A stretch of DNA of 64,000 nt from Acidobacteriota bacterium (GCA_029263415.1 JAJCXN010000028.1:64013-128012), one strand, 5' to 3'; positions 898 through 12,352 are shown, numbered from the stretch's first letter. Translations and numbers: made by a program. Notes: a model not told the origin generated them from the letters alone.

Positions 898-1644
898 TCA
901 GTCTCGGGGCGGCTCGCCGACCCCTGGCAGTTTGTCCTCAAGCGCAACTAACTCCGCTTCAAGTGCTCGGATCCGCAACTCCATGTCCTTCAGATCGAGC
1001 TCCTTAAGTCGCTCCATCTTGCTGCGCATGCCGTCTCCGGAGAAGAAGACGTTCAACTCGTCGAGCACCAGATCAAGATCAGCTGAGGAACCAGAGCCAT
1101 CGGTTCGGGTCGCAAACTTGAAGGTTTGATCGGTGGTCGTACCACCGCTCCTTTCCACTCGCTGGCGAATGATCGAGGGACTCAGCTTGACCACCACAGA
1201 TCGACGCTGCTCAACCTTCACGTCAGCACTCTTGCGGGATCCTTCGCGGACGTACTCCATCGAAACAAAGCCGTCAGAGCGCTCCGCGATCGCCTGAGCG
1301 ATCTGCTGAGACGAACGGACTGTGTCGCCATCGATGGCAACGATCACATCACCTGGCCGAAGTCCTGCTGAGGCCGCCGGACCGTCTGTGGCGGTCTCAG
1401 CCACCAGTACGCCAACACCTTCTGGGACTCGGAAGTACTCGCGCAGACCGCTGGTCAAGTTGAGCATTTGAATCCCCACGTGGCCTCGTGAACTCGCGAT
1501 CATCGTGTCGACGGCCCTTTGGGCGGTGGGGCCCAGGATGTCAACTACTTTGCGCTCGGAGCTGGGTTGCGCCGAAGCCGGCGCGGCCAACATAAGGGCG
1601 ACCAAGCCACTCCAAGCCCAGGTGATCAATCTACGGTGGCGCAT
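898..1644 (-). CDS. Exported PDZ-domain protein with C-terminal coiled coil, no protease domain
   Basis: Signal-peptide-like N-terminus (MRHRRLITWAWSGLVALMLAAPASA). HtrA-like PDZ (GHVGIQM...GVLVAE...GPAASAGLRPGDVIVAIDG). Heptad tail (MELRIRALEAELVALE). Start moved to ATG 1644. Confidence 0.8.
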   Translation of the reverse strand: MRHRRLITWAWSGLVALMLAAPASAQPSSERKVVDILGPTAQRAVDTMIASSRGHVGIQMLNLTSGLREYFRVPEGVGVLVAETATDGPAASAGLRPGDVIVAIDGDTVRSSQQIAQAIAERSDGFVSMEYVREGSRKSADVKVEQRRSVVVKLSPSIIRQRVERSGGTTTDQTFKFATRTDGSGSSADLDLVLDELNVFFSGDGMRSKMERLKELDLKDMELRIRALEAELVALEDKLPGVGEPPRD

Positions 1645-1652
1645 CGGGCGAA

Positions 1653-2393
1653 CTACCAAAGCGGCGGCTCAATCGGACTAGACGTGTCCTCGCTGTCAAC
1701 ACTGAGCTTCGCGGTCTCCTGCCATGCATTGGGATGCTGTCGCCGGGCGGCTGCCATCTCCCTGGCGCGCTCCTCCAACGCTTCGAGCAACTCGTGAATA
1801 TCGACTTGAACCTCGACCCCATCCAACATCATCACCGTTACCGTGGGCCCGGCAGCTTCGCTGGTGCGACGCAAAGCTTCTAGTTCTTGCCGCACTCGCG
1901 CGGCTTCTGCGCGGAACTGCGACAACGAGCTACCGATCATCTGCGGGCTCCGCAACGAGGCTGCACCGGCACCTGGATTAGCGCCTGTATTGGCTACGAT
2001 CTGCCCACGAGTCGGTTGGCGTGTGGTGACCGGTAACGGTCGTGGCGGCGGCGTTGAGGACGCGCCCGCGTTCTGCGAAGCGGTGGCGATCTGGCCAGCA
2101 GCGACGTCGGTCGACCCCTCGCCGCGCTCAAGCAGCGACGGCCCGATCACGAAGCCCAACGCGGCAGCCACCACCAGCGGGGCAGCCAGTCGCAGGCCAC
2201 GGGCGAAGGTGAGTGGTGGCGTGGGCGCTGCGTGCACACGACGCAACACGCGCTCCTCGAAGCCCAGCCCAGCCTCATCGCGCGGCAGCGCGCGCAAGAG
2301 AGCGCTCAACTGCTCGTCGGTATCGACTCGCGGTTGCCTACTGGGAGAGGGTGGAAGGCCTAGCGATACGGGTGTGGGATTGTCTGAATGCAT
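1653..2393 (-). CDS. Putative single-pass anti-sigma factor
   Basis: Directly downstream of an ECF sigma. EQLSALLRALPRDEAGLGFEERVLRRV resembles an anti-sigma N-terminal helix, followed by a TM (LAAPLVVAAALGFVIGP) and a coiled coil. Start uncertain (ATG 2393 or TTG 2516). Confidence 0.6.
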   Translation of the reverse strand: MHSDNPTPVSLGLPPSPSRQPRVDTDEQLSALLRALPRDEAGLGFEERVLRRVHAAPTPPLTFARGLRLAAPLVVAAALGFVIGPSLLERGEGSTDVAAGQIATASQNAGASSTPPPRPLPVTTRQPTRGQIVANTGANPGAGAASLRSPQMIGSSLSQFRAEAARVRQELEALRRTSEAAGPTVTVMMLDGVEVQVDIHELLEALEERAREMAAARRQHPNAWQETAKLSVDSEDTSSPIEPPLW

Positions 2394-2493
2394 GGAGGTT
2401 CTGTCGCTTTGGGTCAATATTGAGAGCTTGAAGTTCGTTGAGGTTCTGCGATGACCGGCAGCTTCTCTGAAGTGCCGATCGGGAGTTCTGGTG

Positions 2494-3219
2494 CTATGCC
2501 TGGTTCTCGCGATCAAGCATCTGGGTCTGCCAATAGTCCTCGAGGATCTCTCGAAGCCTTGCCTTGGCGCGGTTGATACGGGATTTCACCGTGCCCTCGC
2601 GGCAATCGAGCGCTTGGGCGATCTCGGAATAGGAAAGCCCTTCGATCTCACGCAGAACAATCGGTGCGCGATAACGCAACGGCAACTCAGCCAACGCCTG
2701 GGTCACCACATCCACCACCTCGCCCGAGATCGCTTCTCGATGAGGCGAGACAGGCGAACGCTCATCTTCGATTGCGAACAAGTTCGACAGCGTCCGCCAG
2801 CGCGACTTACGTCGCTCCTCAGATCTCACCAAATTGGTGGCGATACGGTAGAGATAGGCGGTGAAGAAGCCGCGATCTTGGTAGCGCGACGAGTTCTGAT
2901 AGAGCCGCAAGAACGCCTCTTGAGAGACCTCTTCGGCACGATCCCGACACCTAGTCAACCTGGACAGGTAGTTAACCAACGCGTTCTTGTGACGAGACAT
3001 GAGCAGCTCAAACGCCGCTTCATCGCCAGCTTGCACCAGCACCATCAGAGCACCGTCTTCCTGTTCGCAAAGCGGCACGCCAGCGGCGCCATCCGCACCT
3101 TCAGTGGGGTTGGGTCGGGCTTGAGGTGTCGCGTTGCTACCGGGTTTGCGCAGTCGAGGGCGCAGGGTGGCGAGATCGTGGTCGTTCATGGTGGTGCTAA
3201 TAGACGTCACGGTATTCAT
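2494..3219 (-). CDS. ECF RNA polymerase sigma factor (SigE/SigW-like)
   Basis: Region 2 (AGDEAAFELLM...DRAEEVSQEAFLRLY...FTAYLYRIATN) and region 4 (LPLRYRAPIVLREIEGLSYSEIAQALDCREGTVKSRINRAK). Start uncertain (3189, 3219 or 3270). Confidence 0.93.
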   Translation of the reverse strand: MNTVTSISTTMNDHDLATLRPRLRKPGSNATPQARPNPTEGADGAAGVPLCEQEDGALMVLVQAGDEAAFELLMSRHKNALVNYLSRLTRCRDRAEEVSQEAFLRLYQNSSRYQDRGFFTAYLYRIATNLVRSEERRKSRWRTLSNLFAIEDERSPVSPHREAISGEVVDVVTQALAELPLRYRAPIVLREIEGLSYSEIAQALDCREGTVKSRINRAKARLREILEDYWQTQMLDRENQA

Positions 3220-3303
3220 CCTGAATCGTTGCAGCTCTAACGCGAAAACCGCTAGGCCGAGATGGCCCAAACAGGGCTCTTCGCTCTCTCTTCCGCATAG
3301 CTA

Positions 3304-3330
3304 CAACGTCCAACCCGCACCGCAAGTTCC
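3304..3330 (-). promoter_or_regulatory. Putative autoregulatory ECF promoter GGAAC-N17-CGTTG
   Basis: Minus strand reads GGAAC ttgcggtgcgggttgga CGTTG, matching the SigH/SigE/SigR-type consensus GGAAC-N17-CGTT, just upstream of the ECF gene. Confidence 0.65.
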
Positions 3331-3432
3331 CGCCTCAGGGTATCGATCTGAGACCGCGCTTTCGGGCTACCCACGAGCCGGACCGATGAGGAAACATATC
3401 CCGACCCGCACCAAGTCTCCGGTTTCTGAGTA

Positions 3433-5049
3433 CTACCGACTGTAAGCCTTCGTATCGATCCCGAACTTCTTGACCTTGTAGCCGATAATCCGCGGCGTCG
3501 ACTGCAGCATATTCGCCGCCGATGACACATTGCCGCGGCAGGTCTTGAGCGCATCCCGAATTAGGTCACGTTCGAACGCATCGACCCGATACCGTAGCGA
3601 ATCGGTGGAATTCAAGCCAGTCGTCACCTCGGCGGTCTGCAAGGTCGGGGGTAAGTGGTAGGGATGGATGACATCGCCCTCTGCGACCAAGACCGCTCGC
3701 TCGATGCAATTTTCGAGTTCTCGAACGTTGCCCGGCCAGTGGTAGCTCATCAGCATGTCGATCGCGGCGCTCGAAAGCCGGCGCACCGGTCGCCGATTGG
3801 TGCGTGCATAGCGCTCGATGAAATGGTCGGCCAAGAGCACAACATCGCTCTTTCGCTTGCGCAGCGCCGGCACGTGGATTGGGAACACGCTGAGTCGATA
3901 GAACAGGTCCTCGCGAAAGCTGCGTTGCGCAGCCTCCGCCGCCAGGTCCTTGTTGGTCGCAGCGATCACTCGTACGTCAACCTGTACCGTCTTGGTCCCG
4001 CCCACCCGCTCAAACTCGCGTTCTTGCAAGACGCGCAACAGCTTGATCTGAATCGTCGCCGGAATGTCGCCGACCTCATCCAGGAAGAGGGTTCCGCCAC
4101 CGGCCAGTTCGAAGCGGCCCTTACGATCGGCAACCGCGCCAGTGAAGGCCCCTTTGACGTGGCCAAAAAGCTCGCTCTCGATCAAGGACTCGGGCAGCGC
4201 CGCGCAATGCACTTTGACGAACGGACCCGCGGCACGATCCGAATCGTAGTGCATGGCTTGCGCCACTAGCTCTTTGCCAGTGCCGGTCTCCCCCAAGATC
4301 AGGACGCTGGTATTGCTAGTCGAGACCATCGCGATCTGATCGTAGACCTCTTGCATCTCATGCGAGTTGCCAACAATGTTGGATGGTCTGAAACGGTCCT
4401 TAAGTTGCTCGCGAAGTCGCTCGTTCTCTTGTTCGAGCTTCTCCTTCTCCTCCTCCGCCGCACGACGAATCTTGACCGCCTGCGCCAGCATCGTGCAGAC
4501 AATCTGCAGCAAGCGAAGGTCCTCGTCCAGGTCAACGTCTTCGGTGTATGGCCGGTCGACCGACAGAGCGCCGTAGGTCTCGTTTCCGGCACGCACCGGA
4601 ACACAGATGAAAGAGAGCTCGACACCAACTCCATCCTTGCCGACCCCTAAGCGCTGAGTCCGATCGAGAAAGAGAGGCGATTCACTGAGTTTGGGCACCA
4701 CCGCGGGCTCACCGCTCTCGACCACGCGCCCAGTCACCCCTTCGCCCAGCCGAAACCGGCCCCGGCGTGCCATCTGATCGCTGACCCCGTGGGCTACCTC
4801 AATGAATATGTCGCCCGTTTGGCGGTTGAGCAGAGTCAGCGTGCCGTGCTCAAGACCCATGTGCTCGGCCAAAGCGTCGAGGACGGGCGGGAGCATCTCG
4901 CGCAGATCAAGGCTTCGCTCCAGCAAGTCGCTCAACCGGTAGAGCAACTTGAGTTCGCGCACCTCTCGACGATCTGGAACCGACTCCATCCCGCTGCGGG
5001 CAGAGTGGCCGGCAGCGAGACTTGCATCCGTGGAGCGGTTTCTCGACAT
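3433..5049 (-). CDS. NifA-like sigma54-dependent activator (GAF-AAA+-Fis HTH)
   Basis: N-terminal GAF, coiled coil, Walker A GETGTGKE, GAFTGA, FLDEVG, WPGNVRELEN and a C-terminal HTH (GNVSSAANML...IIGYKVKKFG). Confidence 0.93.
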   Translation of the reverse strand: MSRNRSTDASLAAGHSARSGMESVPDRREVRELKLLYRLSDLLERSLDLREMLPPVLDALAEHMGLEHGTLTLLNRQTGDIFIEVAHGVSDQMARRGRFRLGEGVTGRVVESGEPAVVPKLSESPLFLDRTQRLGVGKDGVGVELSFICVPVRAGNETYGALSVDRPYTEDVDLDEDLRLLQIVCTMLAQAVKIRRAAEEEKEKLEQENERLREQLKDRFRPSNIVGNSHEMQEVYDQIAMVSTSNTSVLILGETGTGKELVAQAMHYDSDRAAGPFVKVHCAALPESLIESELFGHVKGAFTGAVADRKGRFELAGGGTLFLDEVGDIPATIQIKLLRVLQEREFERVGGTKTVQVDVRVIAATNKDLAAEAAQRSFREDLFYRLSVFPIHVPALRKRKSDVVLLADHFIERYARTNRRPVRRLSSAAIDMLMSYHWPGNVRELENCIERAVLVAEGDVIHPYHLPPTLQTAEVTTGLNSTDSLRYRVDAFERDLIRDALKTCRGNVSSAANMLQSTPRIIGYKVKKFGIDTKAYSR

Positions 5050-5069
5050 GACAGGCGACGAAAGACTCC

Positions 5070-5087
5070 GGTAACTTCAAAGTTACC
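5070..5087. promoter_or_regulatory. Palindrome GGTAACT-tcaa-AGTTACC between glnII and the activator (terminator hairpin or operator)
   Basis: Perfect 7-bp inverted repeat in the 47-bp gap; the core also reads GTAAC-N6-GTTAC. Confidence 0.45.
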
Positions 5088-5096
5088 CGGCCAGCG

Positions 5097-6092
5097 CTAC
5101 CAACCCATGGTCTTGATCAGCCGCCCGGTAGCTCGGTACGGGTCGGCGTTCGCGGCCACTCGCCGGTCCTCGAGGTAGCCCTTCCAGTCGTTGAGCACCG
5201 TGCCCACAGGAATGCGGATTGAAGCGCCGCGGTCGCTGACGCCATAGCTGAACTGATCGATCGACTGTGTCTCGTGCAGTCCAGTCAACCGCTGCTCGTT
5301 GCTCGATCCGTATTCGGCGATGTGCTCATCGTGCACTTCGCGAAACTTCTCACAGATTCCCAACATGTACTCCTCGCCACCTTCATCGCGCATCTGAGCG
5401 TTGGAGAAGTTCATGTGCATGCCTGTACCGTTCCAATCGCCATGCACAGGTTTGGGGTGAATGGAGATCGAGACCCCGTACTGCTCGCCAACCCGATAGA
5501 GCAAGTAGCGAGCCAGCCAGAGGTCGTCGCACGCCCGCTGCGCGCCCTTGGCAAACAGCTGAAACTCCCACTGCCCCTTCATCACCTCAGCGTTGATGCC
5601 AGTAATCCCCAGTCCGGCCTCGAGGCAGATGTCGAGATGGGTCTCGACGATTTCTCGACCAACACAGTTTTCTTCGCCCACAGAACAGTAGTAGGGGCCC
5701 TGGGGGCCCGGGTAGCCGTCCGCAGGAAAGCCGAGTGGCTTCGATGGGCTTTGCATGATGGTGTATTCCTGCTCGAATCCCAGCCACAAGTCTGGAACAT
5801 CGTCAAAGGAACCGCGGTGGTTGCTCGGATGCCGTTCGGAATCCGGAGTCTGAACCTCACAAAGCACCAGAAAGCCGTTCTCGCGAGCTGGATCGCGGAT
5901 CACTCGCACCGGCTTCAACAGACAATCAGACGAGCCACCTTCGGCCTGCTCGGTCGAGCTGCCATCGAAGTTCCACATCGGGCAATCATCGGGACCATCC
6001 GGGGCCTCGTCGACGATCTTGGTCTTACTCCGAAGCGACGATTCAGGCCTGTAGCCGTCAAGCCAGATGTATTCGAGTTTGTACTTCGCCAT
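5097..6092 (-). CDS. glnII: Glutamine synthetase type II
   Basis: 331 aa from ATG 6092: MAKYKLEYIWLDG, LRSKTK, WNFDGSST, GFEQEY, QGPYYCSVG, GINAEVMKGQWEFQ, GDWNGTGMHMNFS, RLTGLHET, DRGASIRIP, GYLEDRR are all GSII motifs. Confidence 0.95.
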   Translation of the reverse strand: MAKYKLEYIWLDGYRPESSLRSKTKIVDEAPDGPDDCPMWNFDGSSTEQAEGGSSDCLLKPVRVIRDPARENGFLVLCEVQTPDSERHPSNHRGSFDDVPDLWLGFEQEYTIMQSPSKPLGFPADGYPGPQGPYYCSVGEENCVGREIVETHLDICLEAGLGITGINAEVMKGQWEFQLFAKGAQRACDDLWLARYLLYRVGEQYGVSISIHPKPVHGDWNGTGMHMNFSNAQMRDEGGEEYMLGICEKFREVHDEHIAEYGSSNEQRLTGLHETQSIDQFSYGVSDRGASIRIPVGTVLNDWKGYLEDRRVAANADPYRATGRLIKTMGW

Positions 6093-6235
6093 GAGTCTGT
6101 TGTGCTCTCTCCCCGCCAAGGGAAACGCGGTAGGCAACCTGCCGAGTCGGTTTCGACCAGTGCATGCCGCAGATTCGAGGGTCACAAGACCGCGACTCTC
6201 GATCCAAGTTACGGTTTTGTTCACAACGACACCAC

Positions 6236-6252
6236 AGCAACCGGCATGCCAC
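6236..6252 (-). promoter_or_regulatory. sigma54 (-24/-12) promoter of glnII
   Basis: Minus strand GTGGCATGCCGGTTGCT fits TGGCAC-N5-TTGCW with exact GG/GC spacing, about 145 bp upstream of the glnII ATG. Confidence 0.8.
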
Positions 6253-6343
6253 TTGCCGCCGCAAACCAGCAGAAGCCTCTAGACAGTTGCAATCGCAAGC
6301 AATTGCGACCAATCGGCCAGGATCTCTTCACCAAGACCGTGCT

Positions 6344-6474
6344 GACAATTTTGTCGCAATAACTGCTCTAACCACGTGCGCCTAGAAATCATCCACGAGC
6401 CGCCTCCCATCCGCGAGACTTTCCAGGGATTCTACACAATTGTCGCGATAAGAACGTCTTGCTACAATTTTGTC
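6344..6474. promoter_or_regulatory. Three related palindromes, candidate upstream activator sequences
   Basis: GACAATTTTGTC (6344-6355), ACAATTGT (6436-6443) and TACAATTTTGTC (6463-6474), AT-rich in a GC-rich genome, about 100-220 bp upstream of the sigma54 box. Confidence 0.55.
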
Positions 6475-6477
6475 TGG

Positions 6478-7830
6478 TCAGGCGGTGACGACTTTCGATG
6501 AGATCAAATCTGGGTCGTAGCCTCGGCCTTTAACGAAAACGCCGCGGGTATCGATCACCAATGGGGCATGTTTGAGCACTGTGGCGTAGTCAACAGAGTC
6601 GTGATCGGTGACCAGCACCACCGCGTCACTCGACTGCAGCCGCTCAGAGGACGGCGAGACCGACTTGAGCTCTTCTAGATCGGGCCAGGACCGCATGCGC
6701 GGTGTCACCGGAAAGAACGGGTCGTGGTAACTGATCTCAGCTCCAGCTTGTCGGAGCAGCTCCAGAATCTCGAACGAAGGGCTTTCACGCGGGTCAGCGA
6801 CATTCTTCTTGTAGGCGAGTCCGAGAACCAGAATGCGAGCGCCCTCGAGATCCCGGGGCAACACAGCTTCCAGTCGAGCCAGCACATAGCGAGGCATCTC
6901 GATGTTGATCTGGCCGGCCAGCTCTATGAACCGAGCACGAGTGCCGTTTTGCTCAGCTTTCCATTTCAAGTAGAAGGGATCAACCGGAATACAGTGCCCC
7001 CCCCAACCCGGCCCGGGATCGAAACGCATGAATCCAAAAGGTTTGGTCTCCGCTGCATCCAACACTTCACGCACATCGATTCCAAGGCTGTCGTAAACCA
7101 CCTTGAGTTCGTTGACCAGGGCGATATTGACCGCACGAAAGATGTTCTCGGTTAGCTTCGCCGCCTCCGCAACCTTGGGCGATGACACTGGCACCACCTT
7201 GGGCACGATCTTGAGATAGAGCGTTTCAGCAACTCGCGTCGCCGCCGGATCGACTCCCCCAACAACCTTGGGAATGTCGGTGGTGCCGAAGTCTGGATTG
7301 CCCGGGTCTTCGCGCTCGGGAGAGAACGCCAGCAGAAAATCCGCGCCGCAGACCAGGCCTCGGGACTCGAGAATCGGCTGCAACACGTCCTCGGTCGTGC
7401 CCGGGTACGTGGTGGATTCCAGCACCACCAACTGCCCCGGACGGAGTTGCTCAACGATCGAGTCAGCGGTCGCGAGAACAAATGACAGATCCGGTTCGCG
7501 ATCAACCGTGAGCGGAGTCGGCACGCAGATGAGGATCGCATCGGCCAACGACAGCGCCTGGAACGAGGTGGTCGCTGACAGGGCGCCCGCACGCACCAAT
7601 TGCTCGAGCTCCGCACTGTCAACGGCGCCAATATAGCTTTCACCGCTGGTGATGCTGTTGACCTTCTTGGCATCGGTATCGACGCCCATCACTTTGAGCC
7701 CAGTCCGCGCGAACGCTACAGCCAACGGCAACCCAACGTAGCCCAAACCCAAAATCGCCACAGTGGCTGTGCCACTGAAGATTCGGCGTTCCAGTTCGGC
7801 CGCGCTAGATGGCTGCTCGGAAGAGACCAT
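6478..7830 (-). CDS. Nucleotide-sugar 6-dehydrogenase (UDP-GlcNAc/ManNAc dehydrogenase, WbpA/WecC-like)
   Basis: GLGYVGLP Rossmann motif, ICVPTP, LESTTYPGTT, SPEREDPGN, AEAAKLTEN, GPGWGGHCIPVDP, GLAYKKNVADPRESPS. Confidence 0.92.
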   Translation of the reverse strand: MVSSEQPSSAAELERRIFSGTATVAILGLGYVGLPLAVAFARTGLKVMGVDTDAKKVNSITSGESYIGAVDSAELEQLVRAGALSATTSFQALSLADAILICVPTPLTVDREPDLSFVLATADSIVEQLRPGQLVVLESTTYPGTTEDVLQPILESRGLVCGADFLLAFSPEREDPGNPDFGTTDIPKVVGGVDPAATRVAETLYLKIVPKVVPVSSPKVAEAAKLTENIFRAVNIALVNELKVVYDSLGIDVREVLDAAETKPFGFMRFDPGPGWGGHCIPVDPFYLKWKAEQNGTRARFIELAGQINIEMPRYVLARLEAVLPRDLEGARILVLGLAYKKNVADPRESPSFEILELLRQAGAEISYHDPFFPVTPRMRSWPDLEELKSVSPSSERLQSSDAVVLVTDHDSVDYATVLKHAPLVIDTRGVFVKGRGYDPDLISSKVVTA

Positions 7831-8830: not shown

Positions 8831-11800
8831 CTAACGTGCTCGCCAGCGTTCGGCAAGATCAGCGACAGGTTCTATCAGTAACTGCTCTACGGACAACTCA
8901 AGCAAATGGTCTTCTCTGAAGGTGTCTTCGGTCTCCATGACTGCATCGCGCAGCTGCTCGTAGCGATTGCGGTAGCCCTGCAGAACGCCACGCAACACCG
9001 GCACGGTACAACGATCTTCGAGTTGGATGTGGATCAGCACTAACCCCTGCGTGCGGCCAGCCGCAACTTCGGGAACTAGAATGAACAGCCGACCGTCTGA
9101 ACTCCCGCGAGCGACCAACACCCGTCGGTCGAGCGCCACTCGCCGCTTGGTGCCGCGCAACACAGGCTTGTGCGCGGTGCGCGACTCAAAATCTCGCGCC
9201 ATACCAGAAGCGTCGAGCTTTCTGATCACGCACTTCTCGTCGGCGGGGTCGCCCTCGATGAGGTACCTGGTATGACCCAAGACCCGAAGCACAGCCGAAT
9301 CCAACGCCGCCAAGGTCTTCAGATCCGCGTACGAGACGCGATCGCGATCGCCACCGCTGTCGAGGACGGCCGCCACCAAGGGCACCGTCAGAAGCGCTTC
9401 GTCGCTACGCGAAATTCCAACCGTCACCGTCTTCGCTTGATGCTTGATGGCATCGACCGGCCTGGTGAGTTCGTCGATGCCTTGAGTCAGTGCACCGCTC
9501 AAGGCCTCGATCACCGAAGCTGGGCTTGCTGGGCCGCCGAAAATGGCCGCGTGTCCCTCCAGGGTGATCTGCCCCATCACGGTGCGCAACAAGAGACCAA
9601 CTTCAGTCGCAGTCGAGGCTTCGAGATGTCCGTTGTAGGACCCCTTCGCGAGCTCATCCAAGAAGAGTTGCATCTGTGCTGCGGACTGGGCCAGCAGTGA
9701 GGAGAAGAATTCGGCCTGCTCTCCTTGCTCGATCCAACGATGAGCGAGCTCTTCGATGCTCGAGCGCACCTGGCGCAACGGCGTGGCCTGGGCATCGATG
9801 GCAAGAGCGGCTGCGTAACCAAACAGGTGGCCCGCGAGCGAGGCCAGCACGAAATCAAGCGATGGGTGGACTCGGGGCACATTGATGACTGCTGAAGCAG
9901 CGTTGAATCGCTGTTCGCCTTCGCTTGCGATCACCACTGTGGTCGCCTTGTGAGCGCGGTAGATGGCAACTTCTTTGGCCACATCGTCAGCGGTGGAACC
10001 TTCAAGGCCCGCGGCACAAACAACGATCATCGGTTCAGACGACAGATCGATGTGCTTCTTGTCCTCGGTTGCATCACACGCGATCGACTTGTAGCAAAGC
10101 TCCGACAACTTGATCCGCACTTCTTCAGCAGCGATCCGGTTGAGGCCGTTCCCCACCAGAGCCCAGTACCGATGGGGCGTTACCAGGCGACCCGCGATGT
10201 TCGAAATCTCTCCACGGAGCCCGATCACACTCCGCAGAGCATCTGGAAGACGACGCAGGTTAGCGATCAAATCAGCGATCTTCCGGTGCGGTGTCGCCTC
10301 ACCTAACACGCGTTCGGTCAAACCAATGGTAAGCAACAACCCCGCTGCGATCTGGGAGTAGAAGGCCTTGGTGGAAGCGACACTCATCTCCACATCGCGA
10401 CCGTCAGAAGTGAACAAGACTCCGTCGGCCTTGTCGCAAAGATCACTGTTGCGCCGATTGACGATCGCCAGCACACCAGCCCCGCGGGACCGCACCAGGT
10501 CAACCGTCCGGTTGGTATCGGTGGTGGTACCCGATTGGCTGATGGCGATCACGAGAGTATCGCTCATCTCCGCTCGCATACCGAAGCCTGACAACTCGGT
10601 TGCCGGCAGAGCCCGCACCTCGCGGAGCCGGTCGCCTAGGAATCGCGCCATGACCTCCGCGATACCCCGACCGGCGACCGCAGCCGTGCCTTGACCGATG
10701 ACCAAAATGCGCTCGATGGCGCCACTCGTCAATCGTTCCTCGATCGATGCCGGGATGGTCGACTCCCCCAACACGACGCTGAGCGCGCCATCGTCGGTCT
10801 TGCGGAATCGGCCGCGCAGAGTCTTCTCGAACGACCGGGGCGCCTCCGAGATTTCCTTCAGCAGGTAGTGCGCATAGTCACCGCGATCGACGTCGCGAGT
10901 GGTGATCTCGGCGATCCGCACGTCGTCCTCAGTTATCGGCAACTCGGTTCCATCATAGGAGAGCAGAGCAAGGCCCTCGAGACTCCCAGCGAGCGCACCA
11001 TCAAGCGTCATCACCTGGCCGCGGGATCCGTTCGGGTTGTCTGGATTGCCCGGAGTCTCTCCATCAAGCCGCACATAGCGATCGCAGAGTTCGACCACGC
11101 CGTACAACTCGGACGCAACGATGAATGTGTCTTCTGCCAATCCCACGTACACCGCCTGGCCCGATCCATAGAGCGCGAGCATCATCTTTCCGGGCTCCTG
11201 CGCCGCCTGCAGGCCAATAGCAACCGAGCCCCTGAACGACGCGACCGTGTCGAGGAAGGCCTTTTCGAGACTACTGCCGGTAGCCAGGTGCTGAGACACC
11301 AATGCTGGGATCACCTTGGTGTCGGTGGTGATCTCGTCCGCGAAATCCAGACCCGCCTGCGACTTAAGGTCAGCGTAGTTGTCCACATCTCCGTTGTGGA
11401 CCGCGACCGCGTAGGGCTCGTCGCCGCACCCGGGGTTGATCCCTTCTTGGTTGAGCGGGTGCGCGTTCGGTTCGGTGATGAGGCCGACGCTCGCCCAACG
11501 AGTGTGACCCAGCACAGCCACTCCAAGAGCAGAGCTACGCAGGGCACGAGCCAGGAGTTCGTCGTTTTCAATGTCTGCTCTGAGCGCTCGAACGTTGTCG
11601 CCCAGCTCGCCGATTTCCTTGGCGACCTTGAACACCAAGCTGAGGACGATTGAATCAGACGGGCCGGCCACGAATCGGACCTCGCGATTCTCGAACAAAC
11701 GAGACGTGCGCTCATTGACCGTAGCCGCAATATCGGGCGCCTGTGGGTCGAGCCCGTGACCACTCAACAGCAAGTGCAATCCCGCCGAGTCGCGGCCTCT

Positions 11801-12352
11801 GACCTCCATGCGATCGAGCGACGAAAGACTCTGGTGAATCGAGAGCGCCGCAGTCACCGCCTCGAGGCTCATAGAACCACTTCGGGACAGCAAACGCCTG
11901 ACCCCTTCAACCGCTCCGAGCGCATCGCGCGCGACGCTCCAAAGATTGTCGCGCTGTTTCAGCAGGGCGGCATTCGCTCTCTCCACGTCCACACTACGCA
12001 AAGACTCTAACGAGCCGGCAGCGGTGCCTCGCCCGTCGAGAACCGCCTCAATTCGATCGCACAGTTCAGTGCAACGGCTGGTCCGGTCCTGCACCAGGGC
12101 GACCAGCGACGAGTCCGCCAGCAACGCCCGGATTCCAGCAGGCGTCCGCACTGCAGAGACCACAGGATCCAGCAGCGTAGATGTGGCGTCGAGACCGTCG
12201 ATCTCGGCTGTTCCCAGAGCGGCGGTCGAATCGACGCACGAGCACAGGACCTCCAGCACCGAATCGAAGGTCGCGCCGACTGTCGCGGCAAGCTCGGGCG
12301 CGTCACTCCTCGACGGATCGGGTCTGCGCAGAATGGCAATGATGCCGCACAT
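8831..12352 (-). CDS. Very long (1173 aa) GlmS-like glutamine:fructose-6-P amidotransferase
   Basis: N-terminal MCG, RGRDSAG, HTRWAS, HPLN, VHNG, TDT, SQSGTTTDT, VASTKAF, KLSELCY and AKTVTVG map onto GlmS motifs, with large insertions and a C-terminal extension. Confidence 0.85.
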   Translation of the reverse strand: MCGIIAILRRPDPSRSDAPELAATVGATFDSVLEVLCSCVDSTAALGTAEIDGLDATSTLLDPVVSAVRTPAGIRALLADSSLVALVQDRTSRCTELCDRIEAVLDGRGTAAGSLESLRSVDVERANAALLKQRDNLWSVARDALGAVEGVRRLLSRSGSMSLEAVTAALSIHQSLSSLDRMEVRGRDSAGLHLLLSGHGLDPQAPDIAATVNERTSRLFENREVRFVAGPSDSIVLSLVFKVAKEIGELGDNVRALRADIENDELLARALRSSALGVAVLGHTRWASVGLITEPNAHPLNQEGINPGCGDEPYAVAVHNGDVDNYADLKSQAGLDFADEITTDTKVIPALVSQHLATGSSLEKAFLDTVASFRGSVAIGLQAAQEPGKMMLALYGSGQAVYVGLAEDTFIVASELYGVVELCDRYVRLDGETPGNPDNPNGSRGQVMTLDGALAGSLEGLALLSYDGTELPITEDDVRIAEITTRDVDRGDYAHYLLKEISEAPRSFEKTLRGRFRKTDDGALSVVLGESTIPASIEERLTSGAIERILVIGQGTAAVAGRGIAEVMARFLGDRLREVRALPATELSGFGMRAEMSDTLVIAISQSGTTTDTNRTVDLVRSRGAGVLAIVNRRNSDLCDKADGVLFTSDGRDVEMSVASTKAFYSQIAAGLLLTIGLTERVLGEATPHRKIADLIANLRRLPDALRSVIGLRGEISNIAGRLVTPHRYWALVGNGLNRIAAEEVRIKLSELCYKSIACDATEDKKHIDLSSEPMIVVCAAGLEGSTADDVAKEVAIYRAHKATTVVIASEGEQRFNAASAVINVPRVHPSLDFVLASLAGHLFGYAAALAIDAQATPLRQVRSSIEELAHRWIEQGEQAEFFSSLLAQSAAQMQLFLDELAKGSYNGHLEASTATEVGLLLRTVMGQITLEGHAAIFGGPASPASVIEALSGALTQGIDELTRPVDAIKHQAKTVTVGISRSDEALLTVPLVAAVLDSGGDRDRVSYADLKTLAALDSAVLRVLGHTRYLIEGDPADEKCVIRKLDASGMARDFESRTAHKPVLRGTKRRVALDRRVLVARGSSDGRLFILVPEVAAGRTQGLVLIHIQLEDRCTVPVLRGVLQGYRNRYEQLRDAVMETEDTFREDHLLELSVEQLLIEPVADLAERWRAR

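Follow-up and report, generated by a model that had tools for sequence, protein, structure and literature searches.

In a 64,000-nucleotide stretch of the genome of an Acidobacteriota bacterium (GCA_029263415.1, JAJCXN010000028.1:64013-128012; hereafter, the window), the gene for a type II glutamine synthetase (GSII), glnII, is followed on the minus strand by the gene for a one-component, NifA-like sigma-54 activator. Judging from sequence comparisons, we are fairly confident that this protein is a nitrogen regulator that drives glnII through three operators and a sigma-54 box, in a layout resembling that of the enterobacterial glnA-ntrBC operon.

The glnII locus and its predicted promoter

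An earlier reading of the window, made from the sequence alone, had described a -24/-12 box in front of a type II glutamine synthetase (GS) gene and, 47 bp beyond that gene, an activator with a GAF, an AAA+ and a helix-turn-helix (HTH) domain. All elements that it named are present on the minus strand, with the box running from 6251 to 6236. The main features, including three upstream activator sites (UAS), are as follows.

6236..6251, minus strand: sigma-54 (-24/-12) promoter box TGGCATGCCGGTTGCT, the only TGGCAY-N5-TTGCW match in the 64 kb
6344..6355, minus strand: UAS1, predicted proximal site GACAAAATTGTC; 16.1 bits, rank 2, start at -104, perfect palindrome in the outer 4+4 positions
6433..6444, minus strand: UAS2, predicted site GACAATTGTGTA; 13.4 bits, rank 3, start at -193, centre about -213 from the predicted transcription start
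6463..6474, minus strand: UAS3, predicted distal activator site GACAAAATTGTA; 20.8 bits, rank 1, start at -223 from the TGG of the box
5097..6092, minus strand: glnII (ATG at 6092, stop at 5097), type II glutamine synthetase of 331 residues, with Pfam Gln-synt_N and Gln-synt_C
3433..5049, minus strand: one-component sigma-54 activator of 538 residues, with GAF domain, coiled-coil linker, AAA+ domain and HTH (Pfam)

The box lies in the 385 bp that separate the glnII start codon at 6092 from a UDP-glucose dehydrogenase gene read in the same direction (7830..6478), and it differs from TGGCAC-N5-TTGCW at a single position (T for C in TGGCAC). The more permissive pattern TGGCAY-N5-TTGCW occurred on average 0.15 times in shuffled 64-kb sequences, with at least one match in 13 of 100 shuffles; by itself the box is mildly improbable, and it is the context that makes it convincing. 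Transcription of glnII is predicted to start near position 6225.

The glnII product has the size expected of GSII (331 residues, against an expected 330-370), contains both GS domains and can be aligned along its whole length with 4bax, a GSII structure (residues 4-328, E = 2e-104), which together identify the predicted protein as a GSII. Its top NCBIfam family is GlnII (NF041605), with a score of 408.7 bits against a cut-off of 500, and it is therefore a divergent member of the type. A 47-bp spacer (5096..5050) separates glnII from the activator gene, the ATG of which lies at 5049. The remainder of the window contains no further sigma-54 AAA+ domain, AmtB, PII, type I GS, GltB or nifH signature. 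Statements on the presence or absence of genes in this genome are confined to the 64 kb, and NtrBC or nif genes may lie elsewhere in it.

An operator motif shared across the activator family

We surveyed the activator family in 80 genome loci picked through the activator alone (58-74% identical). The loci derive from Acidobacteriota (Holophagae, Thermoanaerobaculia and Ca. Multivorans), Verrucomicrobiota, Kiritimatiellia, Lentisphaerae, Fibrobacterota, Planctomycetota, Desulfobacterota (Desulfomonilaceae and Syntrophales) and others. When all open reading frames (ORFs) in these loci were clustered and the cluster representatives annotated, the neighbours of the activator gene were found to include genes for AmtB (25 loci), PII (21), type I GS (18), a GltB-like glutamate synthase (13) and type III GS (8), as well as for a TorF/Gcw-type putative porin (25) and the glutamine-dependent NAD synthetase NadE (24). 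At least one core ammonium-assimilation gene was located within 6 kb of the activator gene in 40 of the 80 loci. Conversely, neither of two nifH signatures (GKGGIGKS or GGPEPGVGCAG) was present in the window or in any of the 80 loci.

We then screened all 4+4 palindromes with spacers of 0-12 bp, covering 68 sigma-54-like boxes in 84 loci. Over the 350 bp upstream of each box, TACA-N4-TGTA stands out with a 56-fold enrichment (33 copies in 23.8 kb, as opposed to 22 in 935 kb); the next-ranked palindromes, CTAC-N6-GTAG and ACAA-N2-TTGT, are overlapping forms of the same motif. The consensus of the putative operator is (T/G)ACA-N4-TGT(A/C). Relative to the TGG of the box, 17 of the 36 sites are located at -113 to -115, and most of the others at -103/-104, -132 to -136 or -142 to -146, with a period of about 10 bp. 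The operators precede amtB, glnK, the genes for type I and type III GS and the porin gene in Acidobacteriota, in phyla of the Planctomycetes-Verrucomicrobia-Chlamydiae (PVC) group and in Desulfobacterota.

The 36 sites, none of which comes from the window or its close relatives, were turned into a weight matrix that was used to scan the entire 64 kb. The three top-scoring sites all fall upstream of the glnII box, and the next match reaches 4.0 bits. Dinucleotide shuffles yielded 0.125 matches of at least 13 bits per 64 kb, compared to the three observed within 131 bp upstream of the box. UAS1 and UAS3 are centred at about -124.5 and -243.5 from the predicted transcription start, respectively, and UAS2 and UAS3 are 30 bp apart, that is, three helical turns. 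Counterparts of the sites were found in three close relatives, namely loci L081, L082 and L083, at -224, -222 and -221 for UAS3 and at -194, -192 and -190 for UAS2, respectively, and at the identical offset of -104 for UAS1 in L081 and L082. The predicted anatomy of the glnII promoter is thus that expected of an enhancer-dependent promoter served by this activator family. NifA-type UAS (TGT-N10-ACA) were not found between 6200 and 6480.

Close relatives and reciprocal control

The activators of the closest relatives are 87% (L081), 81% (L082) and 76% (L083 and L084) identical to the window protein. In L081 and L082, the gene order is the same as in the window, namely, UDP-glucose dehydrogenase, glnII, activator, ECF (extracytoplasmic function) sigma factor, unknown gene and PDZ protein, and the box and the three-site layout are retained even though the surrounding intergenic sequence has diverged. 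The box itself is kept in L081 (TGGCACGCTGGTTGCT), L082 (TGGCACGGCCGTTGCT) and L083 (TGGCATGGACGTTGCT). In L083 and L084, which share the downstream synteny, the slot directly upstream of the activator gene is occupied by a gene for a 470-residue type I GS, which retains the sigma-54 box and the distal pair of sites. Thus, the enzyme type has changed in this slot, with the control architecture remaining constant. Among more distant loci, glnII, the glutamine-dependent nadE and the activator gene stand in a row in L041 (2926-7491) and L043, both metagenome-assembled genomes (MAGs; Kiritimatiellia, Verrucomicrobiota), with two strong operator sites 30 bp apart in front of glnII.

For a reciprocal control, 80 metagenome loci were picked through GSII (58-73% identical), 70 of which had enough upstream sequence. 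The activator gene was not found within 5 kb in any of the 80 loci, a sigma-54 box was present in 3 of the 70, and none of the 70 combined a box with the operator motif. Sigma-54 control thus does not characterise this GSII clade as a whole, and the promoter and operator follow the activator rather than the enzyme. The control weakens the picture of a conserved gene pair and at the same time strengthens the proposed assignment of the sites to the activator. The nearest GSII homologues (L085-L103, e.g., L087:5001-7496; 69-73% identical) are encoded in glnII-glnA tandems together with a type I GS, without box or operator.

The activator protein

The domains of the activator are arranged as follows.

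4474..4908, minus strand: GAF sensor domain, residues 48-192 (Pfam GAF, E = 2.9e-16)
3874..4377, minus strand: AAA+ sigma-54 interaction domain, residues 225-392 (PF00158 Sigma54_activat, E = 1.2e-72, profile positions 1-168 of 168)
3463..3582, minus strand: Fis-type HTH_8 DNA-binding domain, residues 490-529, recognition region STPRIIGYKVKKF (Pfam, E = 8.9e-09)

Pfam also matched the AAA lid domain, and the translation contains intact Walker A (GETGTGKE), GAFTGA and Walker B (LFLDEVGD) motifs. The linker between the GAF and AAA+ domains (residues ~193-224, AAEEEKEKLEQENERLREQLKD) is helical and heptad-like by inspection. The AAA+ motifs, the C-terminal HTH and the predicted sites upstream of a -24/-12 box identify the protein as a putative enhancer-binding protein. 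No receiver domain (Response_reg) was detected in the Pfam scan of the activator, which is therefore not NtrC; the NtrC profile TIGR01818 scored 346 bits against a cut-off of 558.6 and aligned from residue 195 onwards, past the GAF domain. No kinase gene was identified among the annotated immediate neighbours of the activator gene.

The top PDB match of the whole protein is full-length NifA (9qq6, E = 5e-113), and the score against the nifA profile TIGR01817 is 520.8 bits, just short of the 528.85 required. The aligned part of the profile, positions 3-438 of 534, corresponds to the GAF and AAA+ domains and leaves out the C-terminal part. For the GAF domain, the nearest solved structure is that of Aquifex aeolicus Nlh1 (4g3k, residues 32-208, E = 2e-25), followed by NifA (9qq6, 8e-17), Nlh2 (4g3v, 4e-14) and the NifA GAF domain (8jrc, 3e-13). 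Direct reading of the activator sequence revealed no Cys-rich interdomain linker of the rhizobial type. The score below the TIGR01817 cut-off, the lack of nif genes nearby and the lack of TGT-N10-ACA set the predicted protein apart from NifA.

A protein search returned at least 8000 candidate homologues with E <= 1e-30, labelled in the source databases as 'Nif-specific regulatory protein', 'NifA' or 'sigma-54 interacting regulator'. Among the 120 homologues listed, identity was 65-87% over ~95% of the length, and the overall range, near relatives included, was 58-87%. The nearest named relatives belong to Holophagae and Thermoanaerobaculia MAGs, which share the ECF-sigma/PDZ synteny with the window; the latter probably stems from an uncultured acidobacterium in a biofilm metagenome. 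The HTH segment TxRIxGYK[VI] is conserved in the members from Acidobacteriota and the PVC group, and the Desulfobacterota members carry [ST]ERIMGLRV instead. We also considered covariation between recognition-helix and operator variants, and none was evident, the TxRIxGYK and ERIMGLRV lineages both using TACA-N4-TGTA.

Comparison with known systems

The closest parallel in layout is the enterobacterial glnA-ntrBC (glnALG) operon, in which the sigma-54 promoter glnAp2 is served by activator sites ~100-140 bp upstream, and the activator gene is located past a hairpin or terminator downstream of the GS gene, so that read-through results in positive autoregulation. The window unit likewise consists of a GS gene with a sigma-54 promoter and upstream sites, and an activator gene downstream beyond a hairpin. 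However, a single GAF protein takes the place of the NtrB kinase and the NtrC receiver, the GS is of type II, the operator is a different one, and it occurs in three copies, centred at about -124, -213 and -243 relative to the predicted start. Rhizobial glnII also encodes a type II GS and is expressed under nitrogen limitation from a -24/-12 promoter by NtrC and sigma-54, whereas the presumed activator in the window is the adjacent GAF protein rather than a two-component NtrC. With proteobacterial NifA, the window activator shares the domain order and the near-threshold TIGR01817 score, but the unit has no nif genes nearby, and the operator is ACA-N4-TGT as opposed to TGT-N10-ACA.

The Aquifex proteins Nlh1 and Nlh2 (AQ_218) have the same GAF-AAA+-HTH architecture and come from a non-diazotroph. 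The AAA+ domains of Nlh1 are kept in check by a coiled-coil helix and by GAF dimers packed back to back, and are released by an unidentified GAF ligand; Nlh1 is thought to control nitrogen assimilation rather than fixation (PMC9866876). The window activator resembles Nlh1 in its homologous GAF domain and in a predicted coiled-coil signalling helix leading to the AAA+ domain. The differences are that Aquifex belongs to another phylum, that the target, glnBA, encodes a type I GS, and that the GAF domains are ~40% identical by eye. AQ_218 reportedly bound DNA ~100 bp upstream of glnBA (Studholme et al. 2000).

A regulon resembling the one proposed here has been predicted computationally by Kazakov et al. 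(2015) for DVU1949, a single-component sigma-54 activator of Desulfovibrio vulgaris and other Desulfovibrionales (PMC4641369). Its predicted 16-mer sites include GTTACATTTTTGTAAT, ATGACAGTTTTGTAAA and TAGACAAAAATGTTAC, and its predicted targets, with sigma-54 promoters, are amtB-glnB-glnD, the gene for type III GS, glnA and DVU1823-1821 (PMC4641369). The operator core (T/G)ACA-N4-TGT(A/C) and the targets match the motif and the neighbours derived independently here. DVU1823-1821 we take to be glutamate synthase genes. By contrast, DVU1949 is located in its own operon with DVU1952 and ior genes, not beside a GS gene, and no GSII target has been described (PMC4641369). The 42-residue DNA-binding segment of DVU1949 is 40-49% identical to family members from Desulfobacterota; in a short local alignment with the window protein it has 8 identities in 19 positions, and the two share TPRxxGY[KR][VI][KR]. 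The literature searched contained no experimental follow-up or later mention of DVU1949.

Thus, the idea of a NifA-like one-component activator of ammonium assimilation is already known. The proposal that the window harbours a nitrogen circuit distinct from NtrBC and GlnR stands as far as the sensor is concerned, but the circuit is not a new one, given DVU1949 (PMC4641369) and the Aquifex homologues (PMC9866876). The new elements are GSII as a target, a regulatory slot in which type I and type II GS have been exchanged, and an operator that recurs so widely and at such regular spacing across Acidobacteriota, PVC phyla and Desulfobacterota.

Alternative explanations

That the adjacent NifA-like activator drives the sigma-54 promoter of glnII, as the sequence-only reading had proposed, is strongly supported by comparison, through the phased operator found across phyla, the three top matrix sites and the layout kept in relatives. 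The qualification 'self-contained' is not supported: in relatives, the regulator appears to be wired to amtB, glnK, type I and type III GS genes, gltB and the porin gene, and glnII would be one target among several. Several points weigh against the proposed control of glnII. The motif is tied to the activator through association and phasing, and the possible orthology to DVU1949 was judged from the 42-residue segment. In L041 and L043, no sigma-54 box is recognisable before glnII, even at two mismatches. The glnII/activator pair, which was expected to be conserved, is lineage-specific: the search recovered it in the near relatives L081 and L082 and, with nadE in between, in L041 and L043, and in none of the 80 GSII-picked loci. 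The locus is contained in 4 DNA sequencing runs (biofilm metagenomes) and 0 RNA runs. Finally, NtrBC encoded elsewhere in the genome could also act on the glnII promoter, and the hairpin between the two genes might stop transcription completely and so abolish feedback.

Of the competing explanations, one holds that the promoter is driven by another enhancer-binding protein encoded elsewhere, such as classical NtrC, and that the adjacency of the activator gene is incidental. The NtrC dependence of rhizobial glnII and the fact that no more than 64 kb of the genome are visible speak for it, as does the assignment of the motif to the protein through guilt by association. However, the operator is unlike the NtrC type of site (TGCACC-N5-GGTGCA), the motif accompanies the activator gene in different phyla, with offsets that are fixed and phased, and is missing from GSII loci that lack the activator, and Kazakov et al. 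independently linked a matching motif to a one-component activator via an autoregulated operon (PMC4641369). We consider control by another activator unlikely. We think it similarly improbable that the activator is the genuine NifA of a diazotroph, with glnII at the periphery of a nif regulon. Such a role would fit the TIGR01817 score, 8 bits under the cut-off, the names NifA and Nif-specific regulatory protein given to many relatives by NCBI and JGI, and the breadth that NifA regulons can attain (43 operons in R. etli, cited in PMC4641369). It is contradicted by the lack of nifH signatures in the window and the 80 genome loci, the ammonium-assimilation genes in the neighbourhoods, a GAF domain nearer to Nlh1 than to NifA, a NifA profile alignment confined to the GAF and AAA+ domains, and the lack of TGT-N10-ACA within 280 bp of the promoter, where the half-sites are in reversed order (ACA-N4-TGT).

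The box and the repeats could also be chance matches or relics, in which case glnII would have a sigma-70 promoter that escaped recognition, and each of the two genes would be regulated independently. The occurrence of a sigma-54 box in 13 of 100 shuffles and the absence of the locus from RNA runs would be compatible with this, but the clustering of three high-scoring operators by the box (0.125 expected in 64 kb), the conservation of the box and the offsets in L081, L082 and L083 despite diverged flanks, and the absence of a sigma-70-like promoter on the minus strand between 3200 and 6700 make coincidence very improbable. Control of glnII by the adjacent one-component activator thus remains the reading that we favour.

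The leader and the intergenic hairpin

Two further features concern the predicted transcript.

6093..6225, minus strand: predicted leader (5' untranslated, ~133 nt), in which a purine-rich stretch for ribosome binding, GGGGAGAGAG, precedes the ATG
5064..5092, minus strand: stem-loop just 3' of the glnII stop codon; the core stem has 7 bp and the loop 4 nt, and a U tract is lacking

The leader is considered non-coding because L081 carries in-frame stops there, and an N-terminally extended glnII starting from GTG 6224 was rejected for the same reason; the final 35 nt of the leader are conserved in L081. A riboswitch or other RNA element in the leader was likewise rejected: an Rfam search of positions 3000-7000 (E <= 1) returned no family match, and the leader fold had a z-score of -0.77 relative to shuffles. 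In two relatives, operator-like palindromes are located downstream of the box, inside the predicted leader (L083:6343-6384, GACAAGATCGTC and GACATGTTTGTC; L082:6744-6755, GACAAAACTGTC), where they may serve a second promoter or negative control; the window has none. Between UAS1 and the box, no IHF (integration host factor)-like site (WATCAANNNNTTR) was found. The same interval contains a palindrome-rich segment (6282-6310, minus strand; GGTCGCAATTGCTTGCGATTGCAACTGTC, including GCAATTGC and the imperfect TTGCGATTGCAA) that is weakly conserved in L081 and matches neither the operator matrix nor the IHF consensus; it might serve to bend the DNA or to bind a second regulator.

A hairpin with a 4-nt loop is found 8-12 nt past the glnII stop in the window, L081 and L082. 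The stem sequences differ, and individually the hairpins are insignificant relative to shuffles (z = -0.66, -1.17 and -2.55). The element is a possible partial terminator or 3'-end stabiliser, and, by analogy with the enterobacterial glnA-glnL terminator, it may attenuate read-through into the activator gene. Consensus scans for a separate sigma-70 promoter or an intrinsic terminator for the activator gene gave no match: no sigma-70-like promoter was detected on the minus strand between 3200 and 6700, and no canonical intrinsic terminator was detected on that strand. Together with the 47-bp spacer, this makes co-transcription of the two genes plausible.

Other genes of the activator loci and of the window

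In the Acidobacteriota loci L012 (7685-8437), L019-L030, L032 and L036, the activator gene is directly followed by a gene for a TorF/Gcw_chp-type putative outer-membrane porin of 230-260 residues. In these loci, a sigma-54 box that hardly varies, TGGCACC(C/T)GTGTTGCT, and an operator at -114 lie in front of the porin gene, and the porin may be nitrogen-regulated; the window lacks this gene. In 24 of the 80 loci, nadE lies directly upstream of the activator gene, which suggests that NAD synthesis is tied to the putative nitrogen circuit of the activator. A perfect sigma-54 box (TGGCACTTCGTTTGCT) is located ~30 bp before the start codon of the activator gene itself in the Ca. Multivoraceae locus L002 (5930-5945) and hints at direct autoregulation in this lineage. 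One locus, L071 (CAVGIM010000014.1), is labelled as a Methanomethylophilaceae archaeon; the C-terminal 60 residues of its activator are the same as in a Hallerella MAG (L044), and one residue is different in Fibrobacter (L062), and the contig is probably a binning contaminant in an archaeal MAG.

Downstream of the activator gene, the window encodes (898-3270, minus strand) an ECF sigma factor, a protein of ~190-290 residues without family match and a PDZ-domain protein. The same triad is found in L081 (7146-9212), L083 (10745-12794) and 16 Acidobacteriota loci and may be a sigma/anti-sigma/protease unit, with no evident tie to nitrogen control. On the other side of glnII, a very large protein (1173-1261 residues) with GATase_6 and SIS domains, much longer than a normal GlmS, is encoded in the window (8831-12352, minus strand), L082 (437-4039) and L083 (2153-5938). 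Synteny places its gene upstream of the GS gene in relatives; in the window, epimerase and UDP-glucose dehydrogenase genes intervene before glnII. The Pfam annotation comes from L082 and L083, to which the window ORF was matched by size and position.

Proposed mechanism and implications

In the mechanism that we propose, dimers of the activator would bind the three (T/G)ACA-N4-TGT(A/C) palindromes ~124, ~213 and ~243 bp upstream of the transcription start. A nitrogen-limitation signal perceived by the GAF domain would free the AAA+ domains to assemble into a ring, and the resulting activator, through a DNA loop and ATP hydrolysis, would open the sigma-54 closed complex at 6251..6236, leading to transcription of glnII. 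Partial read-through past the hairpin would then yield a high ratio of glnII to activator and modest positive autoregulation. The least certain step is the signal, for which 2-oxoglutarate, glutamine or a PII protein are candidates by analogy: NifA's GAF domain in Azotobacter vinelandii responds to 2-oxoglutarate, and the NifA proteins of Azospirillum and Herbaspirillum respond to PII.

For the family as a whole, a broader proposal can be put forward tentatively, at somewhat less than an even chance: the NifA-labelled GAF-AAA+-HTH proteins might be the main NtrBC-independent master regulators of ammonium assimilation in Acidobacteriota, the PVC group, Fibrobacterota and Desulfobacterota, sensing a metabolite (2-oxoglutarate or glutamine) or PII through the GAF domain and acting via TACA-N4-TGTA phased at about -114, whichever type of GS is plugged into the circuit. 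Types I and II of GS replacing each other in place beside the activator gene would be one example.

Nitrogen control has been worked out in Proteobacteria (NtrBC), Firmicutes (GlnR/TnrA), Actinobacteria (GlnR/AmtR) and cyanobacteria (NtcA). To our knowledge, it has hardly been studied in Acidobacteriota, the PVC phyla and Fibrobacterota, all abundant groups in soil, sediment and gut. The locus described here and its relatives supply a testable candidate regulator, an operator sequence and a spacing rule, and the compact combination of a promoter with three operators and a sensor made of one protein could be put to use as a simple switch for nitrogen-responsive expression. From its neighbourhoods and operators, the family looks like a global nitrogen regulator that has been labelled NifA rather than a nif-specific activator. 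Thousands of entries named NifA or Nif-specific regulatory protein are thus probably regulators of ammonium assimilation, a mislabelling that matters wherever nifA annotation is used to infer diazotrophy from metagenomes.

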